Source: Breznakia blatticola | Lineage (GTDB): Bacteria > Bacillota_I > Bacilli_A > Erysipelotrichales > Erysipelotrichaceae | Assembly: GCF_004365815.1 (NCBI RefSeq) | Contig: NZ_SODD01000008.1 | Span: 30,001 to 62,000 of the forward strand | Direction: 5' to 3' | DNA length: 32,000 nt | Shown: piece by piece, positions 3,904-32,000 of the stretch | Layout: each line of letters starts with the position of its first letter | How positions within the stretch are numbered: the first letter of the stretch is position 1 | Program-made: the position numbers and the translations under genes | The notes under the pieces: model-generated | What the model saw: only the letters and a program-made list of their open reading frames with translations | Told to the model about the DNA's origin: nothing | Databases searched by the model: none

Positions 3904-4236
3904 ATGGCAAAAAATGAATTACAAGTGTTATATGAAACACTACTTGATCGAAAAGAACATGCAGAAGTTGGAAGCTATACTGCATATTTATATGAAAAAG
4001 GTTTAGAAAAAATCTTGAAAAAAATCGGTGAAGAAGCAACCGAAGTCATTATTGCAGCAATGAAGGAAAATAATAAAGAGGAAATCGTAAATGAAATTAG
4101 CGATTTACTTTACCACCTTTTTGTCTTAATGGCAGAAAAGAATATTACATTGGATGATGTAAATAATGAACTTGAAAAACGTAGTCAAAAAAGTGGGAAC
4201 TTAAAACCAGAAAGAAAACCTGTGGAGAAATATTAA
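3904..4236 (+). CDS. hisE: phosphoribosyl-ATP pyrophosphatase (monofunctional)
   Basis: 110 aa MazG-like fold. SYTAYLYEKG..KILKKIGEEATEVIIAA...EISDLLYHLFVLM is the classic HisE pattern. Confidence 0.9.
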   Translation: MAKNELQVLYETLLDRKEHAEVGSYTAYLYEKGLEKILKKIGEEATEVIIAAMKENNKEEIVNEISDLLYHLFVLMAEKNITLDDVNNELEKRSQKSGNLKPERKPVEKY

Positions 4237-5006
4237 TGCAGTCATTTAATTATCATACACATACCGTTCGTTGTGGACATGCAGTTGGAAAAGATGAAGA
4301 ATATATTCAAAATGCAATCAAATCAGGCTTTCAAGTACTTGGTTTTAGTGAACATTTAGGATATGATGGTTGGGACGATCCACAAGAGCGAATTCCGTTT
4401 CTTGAAATGGATGCCTACTTTCAACGTATGTATGAACTAAAAGAGAAGTATAAAGATCAAATTGAAATCCGTGTAGGTGTTGAGTTCGAATATTTTGAAG
4501 ATAAGAAAGAATACCTTAAGGATGTTCAATCACGTTGTGACTATATGATTGTTGGTCAACATGCAAAAAACTTTGATCACTATTATGATCATGGCTGTAG
4601 TGATGATGATGTAGATTATATGGCAGAACAAATCATTGCAGCATTAGATGCAAAATTGACTACATATGTAGCACATGTGGATTACTTTATGCTAGGAAAA
4701 GAAGATTTCACCAAACGCAATGAAGAAGCAATCGCACGTATTTGTGATGCCGTAAATCGCAATGATGCAGTCTTAGAAATCAATCTTAAAGGGATGAAGT
4801 ATGGTAAGAAGGTATATCCTACAGGAATGCAATATATGTATCCACACTATGATGTGTTTAAAATTATTGCAAACAAAGGATGTAAGGTTGTCTTTGGGTA
4901 TGATGCACATAACCCAAGTGTGCTACTCGATCGCTCTTTGGAGCAAATAGCACAAAAAGAAATGCAAGGTTTACAATTGCATTTTATTGACACATTAAAA
5001 TTATAG
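4236..5006 (+). CDS. hisJ: PHP-family histidinol-phosphatase
   Basis: N-terminal YHTHTVRCGHA PHP metal motif, 256 aa. It is last in the his string with a TAATG overlap onto hisE. Confidence 0.8.
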   Translation: MQSFNYHTHTVRCGHAVGKDEEYIQNAIKSGFQVLGFSEHLGYDGWDDPQERIPFLEMDAYFQRMYELKEKYKDQIEIRVGVEFEYFEDKKEYLKDVQSRCDYMIVGQHAKNFDHYYDHGCSDDDVDYMAEQIIAALDAKLTTYVAHVDYFMLGKEDFTKRNEEAIARICDAVNRNDAVLEINLKGMKYGKKVYPTGMQYMYPHYDVFKIIANKGCKVVFGYDAHNPSVLLDRSLEQIAQKEMQGLQLHFIDTLKL

Positions 5007-15519: not shown

Positions 15520-15596
15520 GGCGGTCGTGGTGAAGTGGTTAACACAGCGGGTTGTGGTCCCGTCATGCGTGGGTTCAAATCCCATCGGTCGCCCCA
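15520..15596 (+). tRNA. tRNA-His (anticodon GTG) with genome-encoded G-1 and encoded CCA
   Basis: I folded the cloverleaf by hand. The acceptor stem is GCGGTCG/CGGTCGC (two G-U pairs). The anticodon arm is GCGGG-TTGTGGT-CCCGT and the T arm is GTGGG-TTCAAAT-CCCAT. An extra 5' G sits opposite C73, and the 3' end is CCA. Confidence 0.9.
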
Positions 15597-17442: not shown

Positions 17443-17848
17443 ATGTTCTCTTTGAAAATTTTGTTTTACACTTTGGACAAGTGATTTCAATTTTACCTTT
17501 TCCACTAGGCACACGTACAACTTGTTTGCACTTAGGACATTTGTAGTACTTATGACTCTTATCTTCAAATCTGCGTTTTGTGCGTCTAAAAGGAGCACGG
17601 ATTTTATACCACATTCCTAGAAACTTATTGTTTTCAATACGACGGCGATATACTTTACGTGAGAAGAAACGAAACCAGAAAATGATAAGCGGAATCCACG
17701 TTATTGTGGCAGTAATCCAATTACTACCCACAAATAATGCCATTACAATGTTGAAGACTACTGCAAATGCCAACAAGAAAGTGTTCAGTTGGTCATTTCC
17801 ATAACGTCCTTGCATAAATTGATATAACTTGTATTTTAATTTATTCAT
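17441..17848 (-). CDS. membrane protein with C-terminal zinc ribbon
   Basis: Two TM helices are followed by a basic linker and the CPKC...CPKC pair. 135 aa. Confidence 0.75.
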   Translation of the reverse strand: MNKLKYKLYQFMQGRYGNDQLNTFLLAFAVVFNIVMALFVGSNWITATITWIPLIIFWFRFFSRKVYRRRIENNKFLGMWYKIRAPFRRTKRRFEDKSHKYYKCPKCKQVVRVPSGKGKIEITCPKCKTKFSKRT

Positions 17849-23422: not shown

Positions 23423-23487
23423 AGGTATATTATGACATAAAAGTAATGTGTCGTCACAAATTTTGAAAAAAAGATATGTAAAATCTG

Positions 23488-23522: not shown

Positions 23523-23785
23523 AATACAAAACAAATACGATGAAAAGAAGAGTAGAGTTTCAAAAGTCTTCATAGAGAGTCCTGGTTGGTGAAAAAGGAT
23601 AAGATAAGTCGAACTTGAATATGGTCTTGGAGTAGTACAGTTGAGAGCTTGCTTTAGATTGTACCGTGTGCACCCGTTAACGTGCTAGAGTTTGATAGAA
23701 CTTGAAGAGGTTATTGTAGTGATGCAATAATGAACTAAGGTGGTAACACGATGACATTCGTCCTTATGGGTGAATGTTTTTTTTA
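23523..23785 (+). promoter_or_regulatory. T-box riboswitch leader, probable Met specifier (AUG at 23621-23623)
   Basis: It has AGAGAGTCCTGGTTGGTGAAA (AG bulge/distal loop region) and the specifier-loop-like GAATATGG. The T-box sequence AAGGTGGTAACACG (23737-23750) is present. A terminator with a 10-bp stem (23754-23777) and a T run follows. The Met-transporter operon lies downstream. Confidence 0.8.
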
Positions 23786-23801
23786 TGATTTTGGAGGATA
23801 T

Positions 23802-24836
23802 ATGGAAAAGGTTGTCTTAAAACACATTTCGAAAACGTTTCAAGTAAAAACACATGATGTGCATGCAGTAAAAGATGTATCGCTAAGTGTGGATGAAGGC
23901 GATATCTTTGGTGTCATTGGATTTAGTGGAGCAGGAAAAAGTACACTTATACGTTGTATCAATTTGCTTGAAAGACCAACGAGTGGTGAAGTATGGGTAA
24001 ATGGGAAAAACTTAATTGAATTACCAGCAAAGCAATTGCGTGAAGAACGTAAGAAAATCGGAATGATTTTTCAACATTTCAATCTGATGCGTTCAAGAAC
24101 GGTTGCACAAAATATTGCCTATCCATTAAAAGGTAGTGGAAAAAGTAAAGCTGAAATCGAAGCAAAAGTAAGTGAATTACTTGAACTTGTAGAATTGTCA
24201 GATAAAGCAAAAGCATATCCAAGTCAACTGTCTGGTGGACAAAAACAAAGAGTTGCCATTGCAAGAGCGCTTGCAAATGATCCAAGCATCTTGCTTTGTG
24301 ATGAAGCAACAAGTGCACTGGATCCACAAACAACACAATCGATATTGCAATTACTAAAAGAAGTTAATGAGAAATTAAAACTTACAATTGTTATCATCAC
24401 GCATGAAATGGCGGTTGTAAAACAAATTTGTAATCGTGTTGCGATTATGGAAAATGGAGTCGTGGTTGAACAAGGAAATATTGTGGATATCTTCAGTAAC
24501 CCACAAAATCAGACAACAAAGAATTTCATTAATACGACAACTTCGATTAATGAAATATATGAAATGATTGAAGAAGAAAATCCACTTGTTAAGTTGGAAG
24601 AAAATGAAACGATGCTTCGTTTAACATATGGTTCAAGTAACACCGATGAACCAATCATGTCAGAATTGGTTAACCAATTTAATTTAGAATTTAATATCGT
24701 ATTTGCGAATGTTGAAGTACTAAGTGCAACTCCAATTGGAAATCTCGTTGTAAAACTAAAAGGTGAAACCAAAGATAGACAAGATGCTATTTCATATATC
24801 GAAAAACAAGGTGTGAAAGTTGAGGTGTTAAATTAA
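23802..24836 (+). CDS. metN: methionine ABC transporter ATP-binding protein
   Basis: Walker A GFSGAGKST, signature LSGGQKQR, Walker B ILLCDE, and a C-terminal NIL/ACT-like domain. The start at 23802 has a GGAGG RBS. The track extension from 23751 covers the T-box terminator. Confidence 0.9.
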   Translation: MEKVVLKHISKTFQVKTHDVHAVKDVSLSVDEGDIFGVIGFSGAGKSTLIRCINLLERPTSGEVWVNGKNLIELPAKQLREERKKIGMIFQHFNLMRSRTVAQNIAYPLKGSGKSKAEIEAKVSELLELVELSDKAKAYPSQLSGGQKQRVAIARALANDPSILLCDEATSALDPQTTQSILQLLKEVNEKLKLTIVIITHEMAVVKQICNRVAIMENGVVVEQGNIVDIFSNPQNQTTKNFINTTTSINEIYEMIEEENPLVKLEENETMLRLTYGSSNTDEPIMSELVNQFNLEFNIVFANVEVLSATPIGNLVVKLKGETKDRQDAISYIEKQGVKVEVLN

Positions 24837-25573
24837 TGGGAAGTCAAATTTCACAATTCTTTGAATTGATCATTGGTAAAGTTATTGAATTAATTGATCA
24901 TATACTACCAATGGAATTTATGAATGATCCAATTATGGTGAAAGAATTAGTTAATGCAACTTGGGAAACCATATGGATGTTACTTGCATCTGGTATTGTT
25001 GCATTATTACTTGGACTACTTGTTGGAGTGATTGTGACAGTTACAAACAAAGATGGCTTGTTGGAAAACAAAATTATCTACTTTGTATTTGATAAATTTA
25101 TCAATTTCTTTAGAGCAGTACCATTTGTTATTTTGATTCCATTGATGATGGGATTATCAAGAGTACTTGTAGGTACGGCGACAGGGACCACAGGAATGCT
25201 TGTGACACTTGTTTTTGGAATTATTCCATTCTTTGCTAGACAAGTACAAAGTGCATTGGCAGATGTGGATTCTGGATTGATTGAGGCAAGTATCTCAATG
25301 GGGGATTCCCCCTTACAAATTATTACAAGAGTTTACATTAAAGAAAGTATTCCAGGATTGATACGTTCTATATCGATGACACTTGTTTCTGCATTAGGAC
25401 TTACAGCAATGGCAGGACAAGTTGGTGGTGGAGGATTAGGTGCCTTCGCTATTCGTTATGGATATCAAAGACATGAACTTGATGCAACATGGACAACGGT
25501 AGTCATTATATTAGTTATTGTTGTAATTATTGAATCAAGTGCAAATTATTTCGCAAAAAAATTAACACATTAA
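24836..25573 (+). CDS. metI: methionine ABC transporter permease
   Basis: Polytopic, with an EAA-like loop (ALADVDSGLIEASISMGDSPLQII). It overlaps the metN stop. Confidence 0.88.
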   Translation: MGSQISQFFELIIGKVIELIDHILPMEFMNDPIMVKELVNATWETIWMLLASGIVALLLGLLVGVIVTVTNKDGLLENKIIYFVFDKFINFFRAVPFVILIPLMMGLSRVLVGTATGTTGMLVTLVFGIIPFFARQVQSALADVDSGLIEASISMGDSPLQIITRVYIKESIPGLIRSISMTLVSALGLTAMAGQVGGGGLGAFAIRYGYQRHELDATWTTVVIILVIVVIIESSANYFAKKLTH

Positions 25574-25599
25574 AAGTGTATCTTAAGGAGGATAAGAAG

Positions 25600-26436
25600 A
25601 TGAAAAAAATTATTGCAAGCTTAATTGTTGGTTTATTGGTTTTAACAGGATGTGGAGGATCAGATGATAGTGCTGGCGCTGATGACAAACTAGAAAAGAT
25701 TACAGTTGCAGCAAGTGCGACACCACATGCTGAAATTTTAGAAGAAGTAAAAGAAGATTTAAAAGAAGCAGGATATGAATTAGAAGTAAAAGTATTTGAT
25801 GATTACATTTTACCAAATACAGTTGTAGATGATGGAGAAATTGATGCAAACTTCTTCCAACATGAACCATACTTAATCAGTTTTAATGAAGATAATGGAA
25901 CAGACTTAGTAGCTGTAGCAAATATTCACATTGAACCTTTAGGAATTTATGCAAAGGATAATGAAAAAACAAACTCAGATTTTTCAGTTGCTGATGTAAA
26001 AGAAGGAGCAGTTATTACTATTCCAAATGATCCATCAAATGAATACCGTGCATTACTATTGTTACAAGAAAAAGGCATTATCAAAATCAAAGATAGCAAC
26101 AACTTAAAATCAACAGTTGTAGATATTGTAGAGAATCCAAAAAATGTAGAAATCAAAGAAGTGGAAGCAGCTGGAATTCCAGCAACACTACCAGATGTTG
26201 ATTACGCTGTAATTAATGGAAACTATGCACTTACAAATAAAGTTGAAGATAAACTAATTGTTGCAGAAACAAAAGATTCAAAAGGTGCATTAAAATATGC
26301 AAACATCCTTGCAGTTAAAAAAGGAAACGAAGACAGTGCAAAAACAAAAGCTTTAATTAAAGCGTTACACACAGAAAAAGTTAAAACATTCATTGAAGAA
26401 ACATTTGGTGACTTAGTCATTCCAGCTTTTGATTAA
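25600..26436 (+). CDS. metQ: MetQ/NlpA family methionine-binding lipoprotein
   Basis: MKKIIASLIVGLLVLTGCGG lipobox, FFQHEPYL and NIL..KKGNE motifs. AAGGAGG RBS. Confidence 0.88.
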   Translation: MKKIIASLIVGLLVLTGCGGSDDSAGADDKLEKITVAASATPHAEILEEVKEDLKEAGYELEVKVFDDYILPNTVVDDGEIDANFFQHEPYLISFNEDNGTDLVAVANIHIEPLGIYAKDNEKTNSDFSVADVKEGAVITIPNDPSNEYRALLLLQEKGIIKIKDSNNLKSTVVDIVENPKNVEIKEVEAAGIPATLPDVDYAVINGNYALTNKVEDKLIVAETKDSKGALKYANILAVKKGNEDSAKTKALIKALHTEKVKTFIEETFGDLVIPAFD

Positions 26437-26475: not shown

Positions 26476-26547
26476 ATGTGCATGAATCAATAATAGACAA
26501 GCATTTCTTATTTGTATGGTATAATCAATGCAAGGAGCGTGAGGTCT

Positions 26548-27261
26548 ATGGAGTTTGTGAAACGAAATAAAATTTTTGTTGCACTTGCATCAGTGCTTTT
26601 GCTATTGATTGCAATATTGACTTATGAGTTTGTTCAGCCAAGTAACACCCCAAACACGGTTGTTGCAGGAAATGATAGTGAGAAAACTACTAGTATTTCT
26701 AATTTCTCGTTAAAGTTGACTTCTGCAAACGACTTAACGTTTCATTGGGAAATAAATCAAGGTAGTGAAACAATTTCAAAGATTGAGATTTTTCATGATA
26801 CAACCTTACTAAAAGATGTCACTAGCCAAGCAGTTTACTCAACTCCACTATTTCAAAGTGGAATTAAAACAGGAAATAATGAGTTTACGATAAAAGTAAC
26901 GTTAGGAAATGGGAAAGTACTAGAAAAACGTTTGTATCGTTATATCGATGAGGTATTGAGTTTCAAGGAGGAACATCGACTTGAAGGGACTACTTTATAT
27001 ATGGAAACTACATATTATGTGCAAAAAGATCAAAAACCACGCACACCTATGGTTTCTTATACGCTAAATCAAAAGGGAGTTATTCCATTTGAGTATGTGA
27101 AAAGTGAAACCGTAAAAGTTGAAGGTGATTACCAACAACAAAAAGATTATTATACATTTGATCTGTCTCAAGTGAATTCAGGAACATATGTGTTTTATTT
27201 GAATTTCAATTATAATGAGTTCAATTTAATGTTTAAACGTACAATCAGTGTAGACATATAA
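26548..27261 (+). CDS. hypothetical N-terminally anchored, beta-rich extracytoplasmic protein
   Basis: MEFVKRNKIFVALASVLLLLIAIL is a signal/anchor. AGGAG RBS and a TGgTATAAT promoter (26517-26525) are present. I recognise no family. Confidence 0.7.
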   Translation: MEFVKRNKIFVALASVLLLLIAILTYEFVQPSNTPNTVVAGNDSEKTTSISNFSLKLTSANDLTFHWEINQGSETISKIEIFHDTTLLKDVTSQAVYSTPLFQSGIKTGNNEFTIKVTLGNGKVLEKRLYRYIDEVLSFKEEHRLEGTTLYMETTYYVQKDQKPRTPMVSYTLNQKGVIPFEYVKSETVKVEGDYQQQKDYYTFDLSQVNSGTYVFYLNFNYNEFNLMFKRTISVDI

Positions 27262-27301: not shown

Positions 27302-29401
27302 CTAATCTGCTACTGAGTATAATAAATCTCCATATGATGGGAATGGCCAGTATTCTTTAGAACAGTTTTGTTCGATTTCATCAACCACTGCACGTAAGTC
27401 TACCATTTTTGCTAATACACTTTCACCATAGTATGTCGCGTTTTTAATGTTATCGCTAATGCCGTTTGCGGCAACAATATCATCTGCTAATAACTCAGTT
27501 TTTGTGTATACTTCATGGATTAACTTGTTTAGTTTTTTAATCATAGCTTCTTCGGTAATGCAATCTAAATCAGCAACAATTGATTTTTTTACAGCGACAG
27601 TTTCACTTAAGTCCTTAATGTATTTTAAGACGGAAGGGATAATGTTTTTCTTTGCCATATTTACCATTGTTTCTGCTTCAATATTGATTGCTTTTGAGTA
27701 TTCTTCAATCAATACATCCATACGAGCTTTCATTTCATTGACAGTATAGATATGATTTGAAGTAAATAGTTCTACATTTTTAGCATCCATATAGTGAGGA
27801 AGTGCTTCATATGTAGTGCGTAAGTTTAATAGTCCACGATTTTGTGCTTCAACTACCCAACTATCATCATATCCATTTCCATTAAAGATGATGCGCTTGT
27901 GTTTTGTGAATGTTTCTTTGATTAAATCATGTAAATCTTTTTGAAGATCACTAGATGCTTCTAAGCGGTCTGCAAATTCTTTAAATGCTTGTGCAACAAT
28001 CGTATTTAACATAATGTTTGGACAAGAAATAGATAGTTGAGAACCAAGCATACGGAACTCGAATTTATTCCCTGTAAAGGCAAAAGGGGAAGTACGGTTA
28101 CGATCCGTATTGTCTTTTTTAAATTCTGGTAGTGAGTCAACACCAATTTCGATCTTTCCAGCACTGTGGTTACATTGAGGCTTATCTTCAATGATACATT
28201 CAATGATGGCTTCTAAATCTGTACCTGTGAAAATTGAGATAATTGCAGGAGGTGCTTCTTGTGCCCCTAAACGGTGATCGTTTCCAGCACTTGCAACTGA
28301 GATACGCAATAAATCTTGGTTTTCATCAACTGCTTTAACTAAAGCTGCAAGAACCAACAAGAATTGTGCATTTTCTTCAGGTGTTGCACCTGGCTCTAAT
28401 AAGTTTTCACCTTGATCAGTAGCCATTGACCAGTTGTTGTGCTTTCCTGAACCATTTATCCCTGCGAATGGTTTCTCGTGAAGTAGACAAACAAGTCCGT
28501 GACGAAGTGCCACTTTCTTCATAATTTCCATTGTTAGTTGGTTTTGGTCTGTAGCAACATTGGTAAGCGTGAAGATTGGTGCAAGCTCATGTTGAGCAGG
28601 AGCAACTTCGTTGTGTTGCGTTTTGGCAAGAACACCAAGTTTCCATAATTCAACGTTTAAGTCATCCATAAAACGAGCAACTTTTGGTTTTAATACACCA
28701 AAGTAATGGTCATCAAGTTCTTGTGTTTTTGGGGGACGAGCTCCATATAAGGTGCGTCCTGTATAAATTAAATCTTTACGTTTATCCCATAGATTTTTAT
28801 CAATAAGGAAGTATTCTTGTTCAGCACCAACGGTTGTATTCACTCGTTTTACATCGGTTTTGCCAAAAAGTTTAAGAATACGTAACGCTTGACGATTCAG
28901 TAATTCTTGTGATTTCAGTAATGGTGTTTTCTTATCTAGTGATTCTCCATTGTATGACATGAACACACTAGGAATACAAAGAATTCCTTCTTTGATAAAC
29001 ACACATGAGGTTGGATCCCAACCTGTGTATCCACGAGCTTCATATGTATCACGTAGTCCACCATTTGGGAAACTTGAAGCATCAGGTTCACCCTTGATTA
29101 ATTCCTTACCAGAAAATTCCATAATGATACTACCATCTCCACTAGGGGTAATGAATGCATCGTGTTTTTCTGCTGTAATTCCTGTCATTGGTTGGAACCA
29201 GTGTGTGTAATGCGTTGCACCATTTTCAATTGCCCAGTCTTTCATGGCAGTTGCAATCGTACTCGCACATTCTGGATCAAGCGGTTTTCCTTCTTCAATC
29301 GTTGCTTTATATTTCTTGTAAATGTCTTTAGGCAGTTTTGCCTTCATACAACGATCGTCGAAAACCTTCGATCCGAAAATCTCAGTAACGTTAGTTCTCA
29401 T
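27302..29401 (-). CDS. glnN: type III glutamine synthetase
   Basis: 699 aa with a GSIII-type N-terminus (FGSKVFDD..MK..LPKD.YK). The catalytic motifs are intact: EQEYF, HNEVAPAQHELA, NGSGKHNNWS. AGGAGGAG RBS. Confidence 0.9.
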   Translation of the reverse strand: MRTNVTEIFGSKVFDDRCMKAKLPKDIYKKYKATIEEGKPLDPECASTIATAMKDWAIENGATHYTHWFQPMTGITAEKHDAFITPSGDGSIIMEFSGKELIKGEPDASSFPNGGLRDTYEARGYTGWDPTSCVFIKEGILCIPSVFMSYNGESLDKKTPLLKSQELLNRQALRILKLFGKTDVKRVNTTVGAEQEYFLIDKNLWDKRKDLIYTGRTLYGARPPKTQELDDHYFGVLKPKVARFMDDLNVELWKLGVLAKTQHNEVAPAQHELAPIFTLTNVATDQNQLTMEIMKKVALRHGLVCLLHEKPFAGINGSGKHNNWSMATDQGENLLEPGATPEENAQFLLVLAALVKAVDENQDLLRISVASAGNDHRLGAQEAPPAIISIFTGTDLEAIIECIIEDKPQCNHSAGKIEIGVDSLPEFKKDNTDRNRTSPFAFTGNKFEFRMLGSQLSISCPNIMLNTIVAQAFKEFADRLEASSDLQKDLHDLIKETFTKHKRIIFNGNGYDDSWVVEAQNRGLLNLRTTYEALPHYMDAKNVELFTSNHIYTVNEMKARMDVLIEEYSKAINIEAETMVNMAKKNIIPSVLKYIKDLSETVAVKKSIVADLDCITEEAMIKKLNKLIHEVYTKTELLADDIVAANGISDNIKNATYYGESVLAKMVDLRAVVDEIEQNCSKEYWPFPSYGDLLYSVAD

Positions 29402-29414
29402 AGTTCTCCTCCTG

Positions 29415-29460
29415 AATAAACAAAAAGGGTGCCGTAGACAAAAATATATCTACAGCACCC
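29415..29460 (-). terminator. leader (attenuator) terminator directly upstream of the glnN RBS
   Basis: On the - strand, GGGTGCTGTAGA-tatatttttg-TCTACGGCACCC (12 bp, one G-U pair) is followed by TTTTTGTTTATT. AGGAGGAG and the ATG come straight after. No promoter can fit between the hairpin and the RBS. Confidence 0.75.
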
Positions 29461-29467
29461 TTGCTGT
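29452..29467 (-). promoter_or_regulatory. candidate antiterminator hairpin ACAGC-AAGGGT-GCTGT overlapping the terminator 5' arm
   Basis: A 5-bp stem with a hexaloop that has A at position 1 and G at position 4, the ANTAR-target loop signature. It sequesters 9 of the 12 nt of the terminator 5' arm. I found only one such hairpin, not the canonical tandem pair. Confidence 0.35.
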
Positions 29468-29474
29468 TACCATG

Positions 29475-29503
29475 AGTTTAATCAATAATTACGTATAAGT
29501 CAA
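29475..29503 (-). promoter_or_regulatory. candidate glnN promoter (TTGACT-17-TAAACT)
   Basis: Read on the - strand. The predicted start is near 29468, right at the hexaloop hairpin. Confidence 0.45.
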
Positions 29504-29505
29504 GG

Positions 29506-29598
29506 TTAATTTGAATCTTTTTTACCAATATCACTTACTTTGATTGCAATGTAAAGTAACAACATCAGTTGAATAACATCATAGATAAATTTGTACAT
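29506..29598 (-). CDS. candidate 30-aa hydrophobic peptide MYKFIYDVIQLMLLLYIAIKVSDIGKKDSN
   Basis: AAAGGAG RBS lies 7 nt upstream of the ATG. It has a single TM-like core and a charged C-terminus. A possible TTAACT-17-TACACT promoter lies upstream. It is too short for the ORF track. Confidence 0.3.
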   Translation of the reverse strand: MYKFIYDVIQLMLLLYIAIKVSDIGKKDSN

Positions 29599-29803: not shown

Positions 29804-29832
29804 TTGACAGGAATTTAGTTGTAAACTATAAT
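29804..29832 (+). promoter_or_regulatory. promoter of the GS-like/ANTAR operon (TTGACA-17-TATAAT)
   Basis: Perfect consensus hexamers and spacing. The leader is short (~26 nt) with no attenuator. Confidence 0.75.
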
Positions 29833-29864
29833 CATAAAATAGATTTTGAAGAAGGAGCGTGACT

Positions 29865-31133
29865 ATGGAGCTACAAGATATTTTGCAATACATTCAACAG
29901 CATCATGTGAAATTTGTGCGACTCGCTTTTTGCGACATTTTTGGAACCCTCAAAAATCTCTCAATTAATGCAGAAGACTTCGAAGATGCAACAACATTTG
30001 GAGTTAACTTGGATGCTTCTATAGTTAACGGTTTTATGAACTTCAAAAAAACGGATTTACTCTTGTTTCCTGATTTGGAAACCATGACAGTACTGCCTTG
30101 GCGCAGCAATCATGAGAAAGTTGTTCGTTTTTTTTGTGATATTCGTCATGTGGATCACCGTCCATTTGAAGGTGATGGTCGTTATATTTTAAAGCAAGCG
30201 ATGGAAGCTTGCGAAGCTTATGGATATACACCACGAATTGGAATTGAAAGTGAGTTTTATGTTTTTAAAAATGATGAAGATGGAAAACCGACAAATCTTC
30301 CAGTCGATGATGCATCGTATTTAGATGTAACACCACTTGATAAGTGTGAAAATATTCGTCGTGATGTATGTTTGGCTCTTGGTGAAATGGGGGTAAAAAC
30401 GACTCTTTCCTACCATGAAAAAGGTCCGGGACAAAATGTTATTATGTTTCAAAAAGACCATGCACTACCGAGTGCTGACAATTTTATCACTTTTAAAAAT
30501 GCGGTAAAAAGCATTGCGTTGGTAAATGATTTGTATGCAAGTTTTATGCCACGTCCAATGGCAAATGAGGCTGGTAGTGGACTTCGTATTAAAGTGATTT
30601 TAAGTAAAAATGATCGGAATATTTTTGATGATGAATTTGAAGTTAATATTCAAGAACAAAGAAGTTTCATCGCTGGAATATTAAATCGAATTGATGATAT
30701 GAGTGCATTTTTAAATCCAATACATAATTCATATGAACGTTTAGGACGTGAAAAAGCACCAAAATACATAACGTGGTCAAAAGAAAATGAAAGTGAATTA
30801 ATTCGTGTTAGTGAGAAAAATGATGAGTATTCATTTATTACACTACGTTCACCTGATGCAGCATGCAATCCATATATTAGCTTTGCTTTATTGTTGTTTG
30901 CTGGAGTTGAAGGAATGAAAAATCATGAAGAACTTCATGAAAATACAAAAAGTCCAAGAATGCTACCAGATAGCTTGAAAGAAGCAATTAAAAAACTGGA
31001 GACATCAACGTTTATAAAAACGTATTTAAATGAGAAAACACTTGAGACATTTATTCGTGCCAAAAAAGAAGAAGTAGAACAAATTGATAAAGAAGCTTCT
31101 TTTGCCTTGGATCCATACTTCCGCCTAATTTAG
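29865..31133 (+). CDS. type I glutamine synthetase-like protein with degenerate catalytic motifs (probable pseudoenzyme)
   Basis: It has a clear GSI fold (VRLAFCDIFGTLKN, PFEGD, IESEFYVF, SFMPRP, NSYERL, RSPDAACNPY). Several motifs differ from the consensus. HHEVAPGQHE reads YHEKGPGQNV. GSGMH reads GSGLR. NRS.LIRIP reads NESELIRVS. VEVR reads ITLR. I prefer the ATG at 29865 (GGAG 7 nt upstream) over the GTG at 29859. Confidence 0.8.
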   Translation: MELQDILQYIQQHHVKFVRLAFCDIFGTLKNLSINAEDFEDATTFGVNLDASIVNGFMNFKKTDLLLFPDLETMTVLPWRSNHEKVVRFFCDIRHVDHRPFEGDGRYILKQAMEACEAYGYTPRIGIESEFYVFKNDEDGKPTNLPVDDASYLDVTPLDKCENIRRDVCLALGEMGVKTTLSYHEKGPGQNVIMFQKDHALPSADNFITFKNAVKSIALVNDLYASFMPRPMANEAGSGLRIKVILSKNDRNIFDDEFEVNIQEQRSFIAGILNRIDDMSAFLNPIHNSYERLGREKAPKYITWSKENESELIRVSEKNDEYSFITLRSPDAACNPYISFALLLFAGVEGMKNHEELHENTKSPRMLPDSLKEAIKKLETSTFIKTYLNEKTLETFIRAKKEEVEQIDKEASFALDPYFRLI

Positions 31134-31149
31134 TAGGAGTGGATACAGT

Positions 31150-31716
31150 ATGCCAAGTTGTTTAATTGTATCGAGTTTGGATAAAAGTTTAGATGCACTG
31201 ACTAAACTTTTATCAAGTATCGATTTAAAGAAAATAGAATGTGTAAAAAGTGCAACAGAAGCAAGACAGGTTCTGGCAAAACAAGCATTTGATATGGTGT
31301 TGATTAATGCTCCATTATCAGATGAATTCGGACATGAATTGACATTACAAATTACCGAAAACTCTACAAGTGGTGTCCTTTTTCTGGTGAAAAATGAACT
31401 GGTTGATGAACTGAGTAGCAAACTAACAAGACATGGCGTGATGGTTATTGGAAAACCGTTGAATCGTCATATGTTTACACAAGCGGTTCGTATGGGATTA
31501 TCCACACATCAACGCTTGTCACAAGCAGAAAAAGAAAATTTGCGATTACATGCCAAAGTGGAAAATTTAGAATTGATCAGTCGTGCAAAATACACACTGA
31601 TGGAGTATTTAAATATGGGAGAAGCGCAAGCACATCGTTATATAGAAAAGAAAGCGATGGATGCTAGAATTTCCAAAGAAGAAGTTGCGAAAGATATATT
31701 AAAAACATATGGTTAG
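31150..31716 (+). CDS. ANTAR-domain RNA-binding antiterminator with pseudo-receiver N-terminal domain
   Basis: The C-terminal ANTAR helices are [43 protein letters not shown]. The N-terminal REC-like fold has LIVSSLD where the acidic pair is expected. It has MVLINAP where the phospho-acceptor Asp is expected (Asn instead). The conserved Lys (GKP) is retained. Confidence 0.85.
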
Positions 31717-31727
31717 AAGGAGTTAAG

Positions 31728-32000
31728 ATGAGAAAATACATATTTGTTACCGGTGGAGTAGTAAGTGGATTAGGTAAAGGGATAACCGCAGCAAGTTTAG
31801 GACGTATGTTGAAAGAACGTGGGTTGAAAGTCATCGCACAAAAGATGGATCCATATATCAATGTGGATTGTGGAACCATGTCACCATACCAACATGGGGA
31901 AGTGTTTGTTACCGATGATGGTGCTGAAACCGATTTGGATTTAGGACACTATGAACGTTTTATCGATGAAGATCTGAATCGATTTTCGAATCTAACAAGT
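31728..32000 (+). CDS. pyrG: CTP synthase, 3' end cut by window edge
   Basis: It is not in the ORF track because no stop lies in the window. Translation gives [67 protein letters not shown], the canonical PyrG N-terminus. AAGGAG RBS, 11 nt after the ANTAR stop. Confidence 0.9.

Follow-up and report, generated by a model that had tools for sequence, protein, structure and literature searches.

A glutamine synthetase-like protein with a degenerate active site as a candidate signal-input partner of an ANTAR antiterminator in Breznakia blatticola

The 32,000-nucleotide (nt) stretch of the Breznakia blatticola genome analysed here (RefSeq assembly GCF_004365815.1, contig NZ_SODD01000008.1, forward-strand positions 30,001 to 62,000; hereafter the window) contains a gene for a glutamine synthetase (GS)-like protein of 422 amino acids (aa) that has the GSI-alpha fold of the type I enzymes, in which the metal and ATP sites are degenerate and the residues F17, R19, R80, R165, R166 and S182 of a 2-oxoglutarate (2-OG) pocket are kept. 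This apparent pseudoenzyme gene (29865..31133, + strand) is followed by the gene for a NitR-like ANTAR antiterminator of 188 aa with a pseudo-receiver domain (31150..31716, + strand), which starts 16 nt past the stop codon of the first gene. We propose that the GS-like protein serves as a non-catalytic, GS-fold signal-input partner of this ANTAR antiterminator, and we assign to this reading, which draws on sequence comparison and on analogy with known systems, a probability of roughly 0.55.

The open reading frame (ORF) of the GS-like protein begins with the ATG at 29865, 7 nt 3' of an AAGGAG motif, and ends at 31133; a GTG at 29859 was rejected as the start because the ribosome binding site (RBS) would be too near. 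The product is 100% identical to an NCBI protein of Breznakia blatticola. Upstream lies a perfect sigma-70 consensus promoter for the GS-like/ANTAR operon (29804..29832, + strand; TTGACA-17-TATAAT, 12/12 positions), which is also kept in the closest relative L088 and is followed by an untranslated region (UTR) of about 25 nt without an attenuator. In Pfam, the protein matches Gln-synt_N (E = 1e-22) and Gln-synt_C (E = 2e-76), and with the NCBIfam equivalog model TIGR00653 for GlnA it reaches 309 bits, which is below the cutoff of 429. Its top matches among solved structures, as found by phmmer, are GSI-alpha enzymes, with M. mazei 8s59/8tfb at E = 4e-88 and GS structures of Bacillus, Paenibacillus, Listeria and Staphylococcus at about 1e-80. 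Motif registration was taken from residue-level phmmer alignments to M. mazei 8s59/8tfb, B. subtilis 4lnf and P. polymyxa 7tdp, and it agrees with an AlphaFold2 model of the protein (predicted local distance difference test score, pLDDT, 80; predicted template modelling score, pTM, 0.86), for which Foldseek gives a template modelling (TM) score of 0.92 to 8tfk_A. The protein probably forms dodecamers.

For the catalytic site we use the residue numbers of S. typhimurium GS, and the roles of the ATP and metal residues in GSI-alpha proteins are those listed in PMC10799026. Three of the six metal ligands are replaced in the GS-like protein (E220V, H269R and E357T) and the other three, E129, E131 and E212, are kept. 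The flap glutamate E327 has become a lysine (K297 in the numbering of the 422-aa protein), and the contacts to ATP and phosphate are replaced by E207T, by a lysine at the position of H271, and by S273I, R339E and R355F, with R344 as the only one that is kept. Y197 of the family is a lysine as well, and R321, R359 and D50 are retained. Judged from the aligned residues, only half of the metal ligands and a minority of the nucleotide contacts are left. The same set of substitutions recurs in 8 orthologue clusters that share 51-100% identity and come from independent genomes and metagenomes, and for this reason the substitutions cannot be ascribed to chance or sequencing error. The next relatives, which are annotated as 'glutamine synthetase family protein' (46-53% identity, about 439 aa), retain all catalytic residues. 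The flap position E327 varies (E, K, S or R) even in members with intact metal and ATP residues, and a lysine occupies it in 15 of about 80 genome loci; owing to this variation in otherwise intact members, reduced catalysis may be more common than an 11-residue signature of catalytic positions reveals.

A preliminary description, made from the letters of the window, had called the protein a GSI paralogue whose motifs for metal binding and catalysis are degenerate, and Pfam, the phmmer structure alignments and Foldseek bear this out. Its motif registration, which it wished to see checked by alignment, is right against all of the structures named above: HHEVAPxQHE reads YHEKGPGQNV, with a valine in place of the second glutamate (E220V), GSGMH reads GSGLR (H269R), NRS reads NES (R339E), and xIELR reads FITLR (E357T). 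All four positions had been taken for metal ligands, which is true of E220, H269 and E357, but R339 is a phosphate/ATP contact. The further remark that the neighbouring glnN keeps its equivalents, so that no lineage-wide drift is at work, also stands. This gene for a type III GS (27302..29401, - strand) has all catalytic blocks intact, each of them identical to those of B. fragilis GSIII 3o6x (E = 1e-188), and an ordinary GS is thus encoded next door to the GS-like gene.

The features of the ANTAR protein suggest why such a partner may be needed. In its receiver-like domain, the phospho-acceptor aspartate is replaced by Asn53 (aligned to the acceptor Asp of Rv1626), and the DD pocket reads SS/SL. 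The acceptor position is Asn in 73 of 87 ANTAR family members, in which the acidic pocket is absent, too. The loop-plugging methionine is invariant in these ANTAR proteins (Met170 here), and the residue that stacks on G4 of the RNA loop is His162, as in AmiR. As the acceptor aspartate and the acidic pocket are both missing, the ANTAR protein is likely in need of a partner, and in the known cases AmiC-AmiR and NasS-NasT, pseudo-receiver ANTAR proteins are under the control of partner proteins (PMC3795266). The operon holds no candidate input protein for the pseudo-receiver ANTAR besides the GS-like protein. Since the ANTAR gene starts only 16 nt after the GS-like stop codon, the two genes are probably co-transcribed.

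The pairing of the two genes is maintained far beyond Breznakia. A scan of GTDB species representatives returned 80 GS-like loci, one of which runs into a contig edge, and in all 79 assessable loci an ANTAR ORF lies immediately 3' of the GS-like gene. The reciprocal scan, with ANTAR proteins as seeds against metagenomes, gave 68 assessable loci, and in 65 of them a GS-like ORF directly precedes the ANTAR gene. The gene order glnN(-), GS-like(+), ANTAR(+), pyrG(+) was found in all seven loci that were examined first, and the order GOGAT (glutamate synthase), GS-like, ANTAR in L009, L012, L022, L028 and L032. In the window, the 5' part of pyrG, which encodes CTP synthase, a glutamine amidotransferase, begins 11 nt after the ANTAR stop codon (31728..32000, + strand); in about 20 related loci (about a quarter) across phyla, pyrG follows the ANTAR gene immediately or at a short distance, and in others it lies elsewhere in the fetched flank. 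In L047, pyrG carries a hexaloop attenuator of its own.

The GS-like family is spread over Clostridia, Erysipelotrichia/Erysipelotrichales, some spirochaetes and Endomicrobia. Rates of catalytic loss were counted within the ANTAR-linked family (200 plus 54 sequences). At least one substitution at the 11 catalytic positions occurs in 28 of the 200 family sequences, which form about 17 clusters, and for most of these clusters the nearest neighbour is an intact sequence and not another degenerate cluster. Of the 54 sequences sampled independently with ANTAR seeds, 18 are degenerate, with nine signatures. These counts describe an ANTAR-linked family that is mostly catalytically intact by its residues, with about 14-33% degenerate members and apparently many independent losses. 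The idea, raised in the preliminary description, of a degenerate clade that always neighbours ANTAR genes is therefore correct with respect to the adjacency, whereas a single dedicated clade does not exist, as the family is mostly intact and the degeneration recurrent. GS-like/ANTAR pairs with the hairpin described below also occur beyond Firmicutes, in Treponema, Sphaerochaeta, Spirochaetales and Bullifex (L037, L039, L048, L052, L057, L082), in Endomicrobia (L031) and in a metagenome-assembled genome (MAG) labelled Bacteroides (L043), and this occurrence suggests that either the module as a whole has spread horizontally or the MAG contigs were binned wrongly.

The residues that have been kept point to the kind of signal that the protein may receive. 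In M. mazei GlnA1, 2-OG is contacted by F24, R26, R87, R172', R173' and S189', plus a water-mediated contact by S38 (PMC11957540), and in M. thermolithotrophicus GS by F18', R20', R88', R174, R175 and S191 (PMC10799026). In the structure alignments, these contacts map to F17, R19, R80, R165, R166 and S182 of the GS-like protein. The equivalents of F24, R87, R172, R173 and S189 (F17, R80, R165, R166 and S182) are invariant in 200 of 200 and 53 of 53 family members of the two samples, and the equivalent of R26 (R19) is R or K in every one of them. B. subtilis GS is insensitive to 2-OG through Tyr20, Glu36 and the absence of Arg88 (PMC10799026), and the GS-like protein is of the binding type at all three of these discriminating positions (F17, S33 and R80), where the family as a whole has Phe, Ser/Ala/Thr and Arg. 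Around the last of them, the family reads PWR where B. subtilis has PWT and P. polymyxa PWV. A further arginine (R62 in B. subtilis, R66 in M. mazei), which locks glutamine in place, is needed for feedback by glutamine, and its loss abolishes glutamine inhibition in archaeal GS (PMC10799026, PMC11957540). The position is Asn59 in the GS-like protein, and it is never Arg in the 200 plus 54 family members. Because the pocket residues are invariant while catalytic residues have been lost repeatedly, and because the glutamine-lock arginine is never present, selection has, as far as residue conservation tells, retained an allosteric pocket of the 2-OG type and released the active site.

If the GS-like protein is a sensor for the ANTAR protein, does it need to sense 2-OG? 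The ligand could also be glutamine or glutamate in what is left of the active site, similar to the feedback-inhibited GS of Bacillus that acts on GlnR and TnrA, in which case the 2-OG pocket would be of structural importance only. The amino-acid contacts E131, R321, R359 and D50 are invariant even in degenerate members, and the complexes of GS, glutamine and GlnR peptide (7tfa, 7tf6 and 7tf9; PMC11800386) provide a precedent. However, the arginine of the glutamine lock is missing from every family member, the flap glutamate that would contact glutamine is a lysine in the GS-like protein, and metals that organise the site are missing. We therefore consider glutamine or glutamate sensing in the former active site to be unlikely, albeit the most serious of the alternatives.

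The output of the proposed sensor would be found on the glnN transcript, as glnN is the predicted regulated target. Its promoter (29475..29503, - strand; TTGACT-17-TAAACT) has a -10 box that ends 7 nt before a putative antiterminator hairpin (29452..29467, - strand; ACAGC-AAGGGU-GCUGU), and this places the hairpin at the very 5' end of the glnN transcript. The hairpin presents a single hexaloop of the ANTAR type (A1, G4) on a closing C:G pair. It is followed by an intrinsic terminator (29415..29462, - strand) with a stem of 16 base pairs (29462-29425) and a U-tract, directly 5' of the glnN RBS. The 5' arm of the terminator shares 11 nt with the hairpin and reuses its loop and 3' stem, and by these pairings the two structures are mutually exclusive. 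The same layout of promoter, hairpin and terminator precedes glnN in distant taxa, where the terminator pairing reaches 96.6%, with compensatory changes in 7 of 14 pairs and a score that was attained by none of 500 shuffles. The hairpin stems covary as well (ACAGC/GCUGU, UGAAC/GUUCA, UACAC/GUGUA, ACAAC/GUUGU, CGGC/GCCG, UAAC/GUUA), while the loop and its closing pair, C-AARGRY-G, stay fixed; this stem covariation is visible in leaders outside the stem-fixing regular expression by which the sequences of alignment A2 had been chosen, and A2 itself is uninformative on this point.

A scan for hairpins with terminators returned 97 elements in 1.1 Mb, compared with 1 in the reversed sequence, and these elements stand before glnN (31), the GS-like gene (11), GOGAT-like GATase_2 genes, amtB-PII fusions, asnA, asnB, gdh, carA, purA and pyrG. 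In nearly all glnN leaders (L001-L087) the hairpin lies 7-10 nt past the -10 box, often after a CATRA motif; such a spacing leaves no room for a first hairpin P1, and ANTAR attenuators do not usually have this geometry. Structural work on EutV revised the minimal ANTAR site to one hexaloop and raised the question of where such sites serve (PMC8934654). A search for the dual-hexaloop target, i.e. two A..G.. hexaloops within 15 nt, in the window and 7 loci gave mostly noise, with a plausible P1 in L007 only, and this criterion was replaced by that of a single hairpin plus terminator. A second match to CAAGGACG in the window, at 17805-17812, was discarded, as it is located within a coding ORF and has no terminator. 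In Rfam 15, searched at gathering thresholds and at E ≤ 10, the leader element is not represented, and only chance matches to miRNA and snoRNA families came up. The GlnR/TnrA box TGTNAN7TNACA is absent from the region between glnN and the GS-like gene, and a single match in the window, at 23477, is at chance level. In the same intergenic region, 5' of the glnN promoter, an ORF for a hydrophobic peptide of 30 aa, preceded by a good RBS (29506-29598, - strand), was considered as a small GS-binding protein and rejected; the intergenic region of L088 is shorter and does not contain it, which makes a genuine gene improbable.

In many relatives, a second class of element, AUGAAC-AAAGGC-GUUCAU with a terminator, precedes GS-like/ANTAR or GOGAT-GS-like-ANTAR operons (L007, 5918-5990, + strand; L010, L021, L024, L029, L070, L074, L075, L085, L086). 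Its position before their own operon implies autoregulation in these organisms. The Breznakia clade (the window, L003 and L088) is without it and has the consensus promoter with a short UTR instead.

How could these components work together? The GS-like protein would bind a metabolite that reports the nitrogen status, most likely 2-OG at the subunit interface, with glutamate or glutamine in the retained amino-acid site as another possibility, and the binding would alter its conformation or oligomeric state. Depending on its state, it would then retain the ANTAR dimer or release it, as in AmiC-AmiR and NasS-NasT. Under nitrogen limitation, i.e. at high 2-OG, free ANTAR protein would bind the 5'-terminal hexaloop of the glnN transcript and stabilise the antiterminator, and RNA polymerase would read through; in nitrogen excess, the ANTAR protein would be sequestered and the terminator would form. 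With GlnN supplying the GS activity, catalysis by the GSI-like partner would be dispensable, which would explain its loss here and repeatedly elsewhere.

The proximity of glnN could also be taken to mean that the GS-like protein acts on GlnN itself, as a non-catalytic subunit or modulator, or that it is a structural relic with a moonlighting role, and that the adjacency to the ANTAR gene reflects co-regulation only. The divergent glnN is an immediate neighbour here and lies within 7 kb of the GS-like gene in about half of the genome loci (about 45 of 80), and protein partners are known to regulate GS proteins. Yet the adjacency to the ANTAR gene (79 of 79) is far tighter than that to glnN, and the pseudo-receiver ANTAR protein would be left without any other candidate input in the operon. 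GSI and GSIII have different folds where their subunits meet in the oligomer, and mixed oligomers of the two are not known, which also counts against a role as GlnN subunit. We regard a modulation of GlnN as improbable.

As half of the metal ligands remain, it may be asked whether the protein has kept an ATP-dependent ligase activity in which the chemistry or the use of metals is altered, for instance that of a gamma-glutamyl-amine synthetase such as GlnA2-4 of Streptomyces or PuuA. It does match the model for gamma-glutamylputrescine synthetase, NF045547, but the match is weak, and its 207 bits are far under the cutoff of 650 bits. Moreover, the losses affect four or five ATP contacts together with the two metal sites, with replacements that are hydrophobic or opposite in charge (V, T, F, I, E), and different lineages lose different residues, which is unlike the pattern that a new conserved chemistry would leave. 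A remaining ligase activity is, on these grounds, quite improbable. That the gene is decaying into a pseudogene is very hard to believe despite the many lost catalytic residues, given that no orthologue down to 51% identity has a broken ORF, that the promoter and RBS are of perfect consensus, and that the ratio of nonsynonymous to synonymous substitution rates (dN/dS) is 0.065-0.19. Compared with the 86%-identical orthologue of MTC7, dN/dS is 0.065 for the GS-like gene, 0.052 for the ANTAR gene and 0.035 for glnN, values that are rough because dS is about 1.4 and thus near saturation. Catalytically intact relatives show a conservation of 90% or more in 179 columns; of these, the Breznakia-type clade keeps 133 and loses 28, and the losses are concentrated in the metal and ATP site. 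By these measures, the GS-like gene is under strong purifying selection and is no relic.

Several observations weigh against a 2-OG sensor that controls the ANTAR protein. The 2-OG-insensitive B. subtilis GS shares four of the seven contacts to 2-OG (F, R172, R173 and S189), and the case for specificity therefore leans mainly on R80, on F17 being no tyrosine, and on S33 in the place of the glutamate E36. The seventh contact, the water-mediated S38 of M. mazei, is an asparagine (N31) in the GS-like protein. The amino-acid-site residues E131, R321 and R359 are invariant just like the pocket, which leaves glutamate or glutamine as possible ligands. Three ANTAR loci have no adjacent GS-like gene: in L143 and L144, the ANTAR gene (4001-4570) lies between purC and dapF-guaA, and in L165 (2754-3344) between a GOGAT-like gene and glnN. 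Some of the 'degenerate' cases from MAGs concern a single residue and could be errors or still-active enzymes. The GlnA proteins of C. thermocellum and C. saccharobutylicum are likened to the GS-like family by synteny only. The direction of control, sequestration as opposed to activation, is suggested by the examples of AmiC/AmiR and NasS/NasT, and the signalling account as a whole is drawn from conservation, synteny and analogy.

Nevertheless, the sensor reading may extend beyond Breznakia. It is conceivable, and we put this forward tentatively and at somewhat less than even odds, that the members of the whole GSI-alpha-fold family are primarily 2-OG receptors that gate pseudo-receiver ANTAR proteins on single-hexaloop attenuators at the 5' end of transcripts, and that they form the master nitrogen circuit in many Clostridia, Erysipelotrichia and some spirochaetes. 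If this were true, the naturally dead versions in Breznakia and more than 15 other lineages would show that sensing, and not catalysis, is the selected function, and 2-OG signalling could be GS-based and independent of PII, with an output at the level of RNA. In the literature, we found no report that joins a GS pseudoenzyme with ANTAR or with 2-OG.

Clostridia and their relatives lack the enterobacterial NtrBC logic, and often they lack GlnR/TnrA as well. Ever since the discovery of the GlnA-NitR pair, their way of sensing nitrogen has been obscure. A seemingly dead GS under purifying selection beside an antiterminator can be regarded as a natural separation-of-function mutant, which points to the GS-fold protein as the sensor, and the invariant pocket amid the decay of the active site names 2-OG as the candidate ligand. 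The protein would add a GS-fold member to the bacterial pseudoenzymes and would extend the archaeal 2-OG pocket to bacteria. The single-hexaloop attenuator, hitherto unannotated and now defined, would aid the prediction of regulons in Firmicutes of the gut and rumen, among them biofuel strains like C. thermocellum.

As for the rest of the window, a T-box leader (23531-23768, + strand; Rfam RF00230, 118.6 bits) stands directly 5' of an operon for an ABC transporter of the MetN/MetI/MetQ type (23751-26436), for which the syntenic loci show the domains ABC_tran with NIL, BPD_transp_1 and Lipoprotein_9. Between this operon and glnN, an ORF for 249 aa with an N-terminal hydrophobic segment (26512-27261, + strand) is kept in the Breznakia clade, and its counterparts in L001, L088 and L089 (237-238 aa) have no Pfam match. 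A single tRNA gene was found at 15521-15593 (+ strand; Rfam RF00005, 57.6 bits).

Among the known systems, the 2-OG-activated archaeal GSI-alpha enzymes, M. mazei GlnA1 and M. thermolithotrophicus GS, are closest in structure and sequence; they are the best matches (E = 4e-88, TM score 0.92), the pocket residues are kept and the clash residues of bacterial GS are absent. The archaeal proteins, however, are active enzymes in which 2-OG primes the ATP site, whereas in the GS-like protein the ATP/metal site is gone and the equivalent of the F204 relay is lost (Y197K), so that the output must be something other than catalysis. M. mazei GS moreover has the glutamine-lock residue R66, which the GS-like protein lacks. 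The feedback-inhibited GS of Bacillus offers, with GlnR/TnrA, the example of a GSI-alpha protein as metabolite-sensing co-regulator of a nitrogen regulator (7tfa, 7tf6 and 7tf9). It is a working enzyme that senses glutamine through Arg62 and acts on DNA-binding repressors, whereas in case of the GS-like protein Arg62 is absent, catalysis appears to be lost and the putative partner is an RNA-binding antiterminator.

On the side of the regulator, AmiC-AmiR and NasS-NasT likewise combine a non-phosphorylatable, receiver-like ANTAR protein with a small-molecule-binding protein that is encoded beside it and controls it by complex formation (PMC3795266). Their sensors have periplasmic-binding-protein folds, whereas the candidate sensor here has a GS fold. 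With the dual-hexaloop targets of the EutV type, the glnN leader shares the hexaloop with A1 and G4, the conserved closing pair and the overlap of the hairpin with the 5' arm of the terminator. It differs in having one hexaloop at the extreme 5' end, in a loop consensus (AARGRY) that is much more tightly fixed, and in being absent from Rfam 15.

The most similar arrangement is that of the clostridial GlnA-NitR system. In C. saccharobutylicum, the one organism for which nitrogen-responsive antitermination in vivo is covered by the literature, the ANTAR protein NitR induces GS and GOGAT genes on nitrogen limitation by a mechanism that is 'not fully understood' (PMC6316151), and in C. thermocellum, the ANTAR gene Clo1313_2030 adjoins a type I GS gene (2031) and GOGAT genes (2032-36). 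Both there and here, an ANTAR response-regulator-like gene stands 3' of a type I-alpha GS gene, and antitermination of GS/GOGAT genes on nitrogen limitation is the known or proposed outcome. The order GOGAT, GS-like, ANTAR of L009, L012, L022, L028 and L032 is likewise that of the clostridial system. GlnA is treated as an enzyme in the clostridial system, whereas in Breznakia the GS partner seems to be without a catalytic site, a separate GlnN enzyme is encoded, and the operon carries no attenuator of its own. The Breznakia locus thus appears to be a variation on the poorly understood clostridial GlnA-NitR system.

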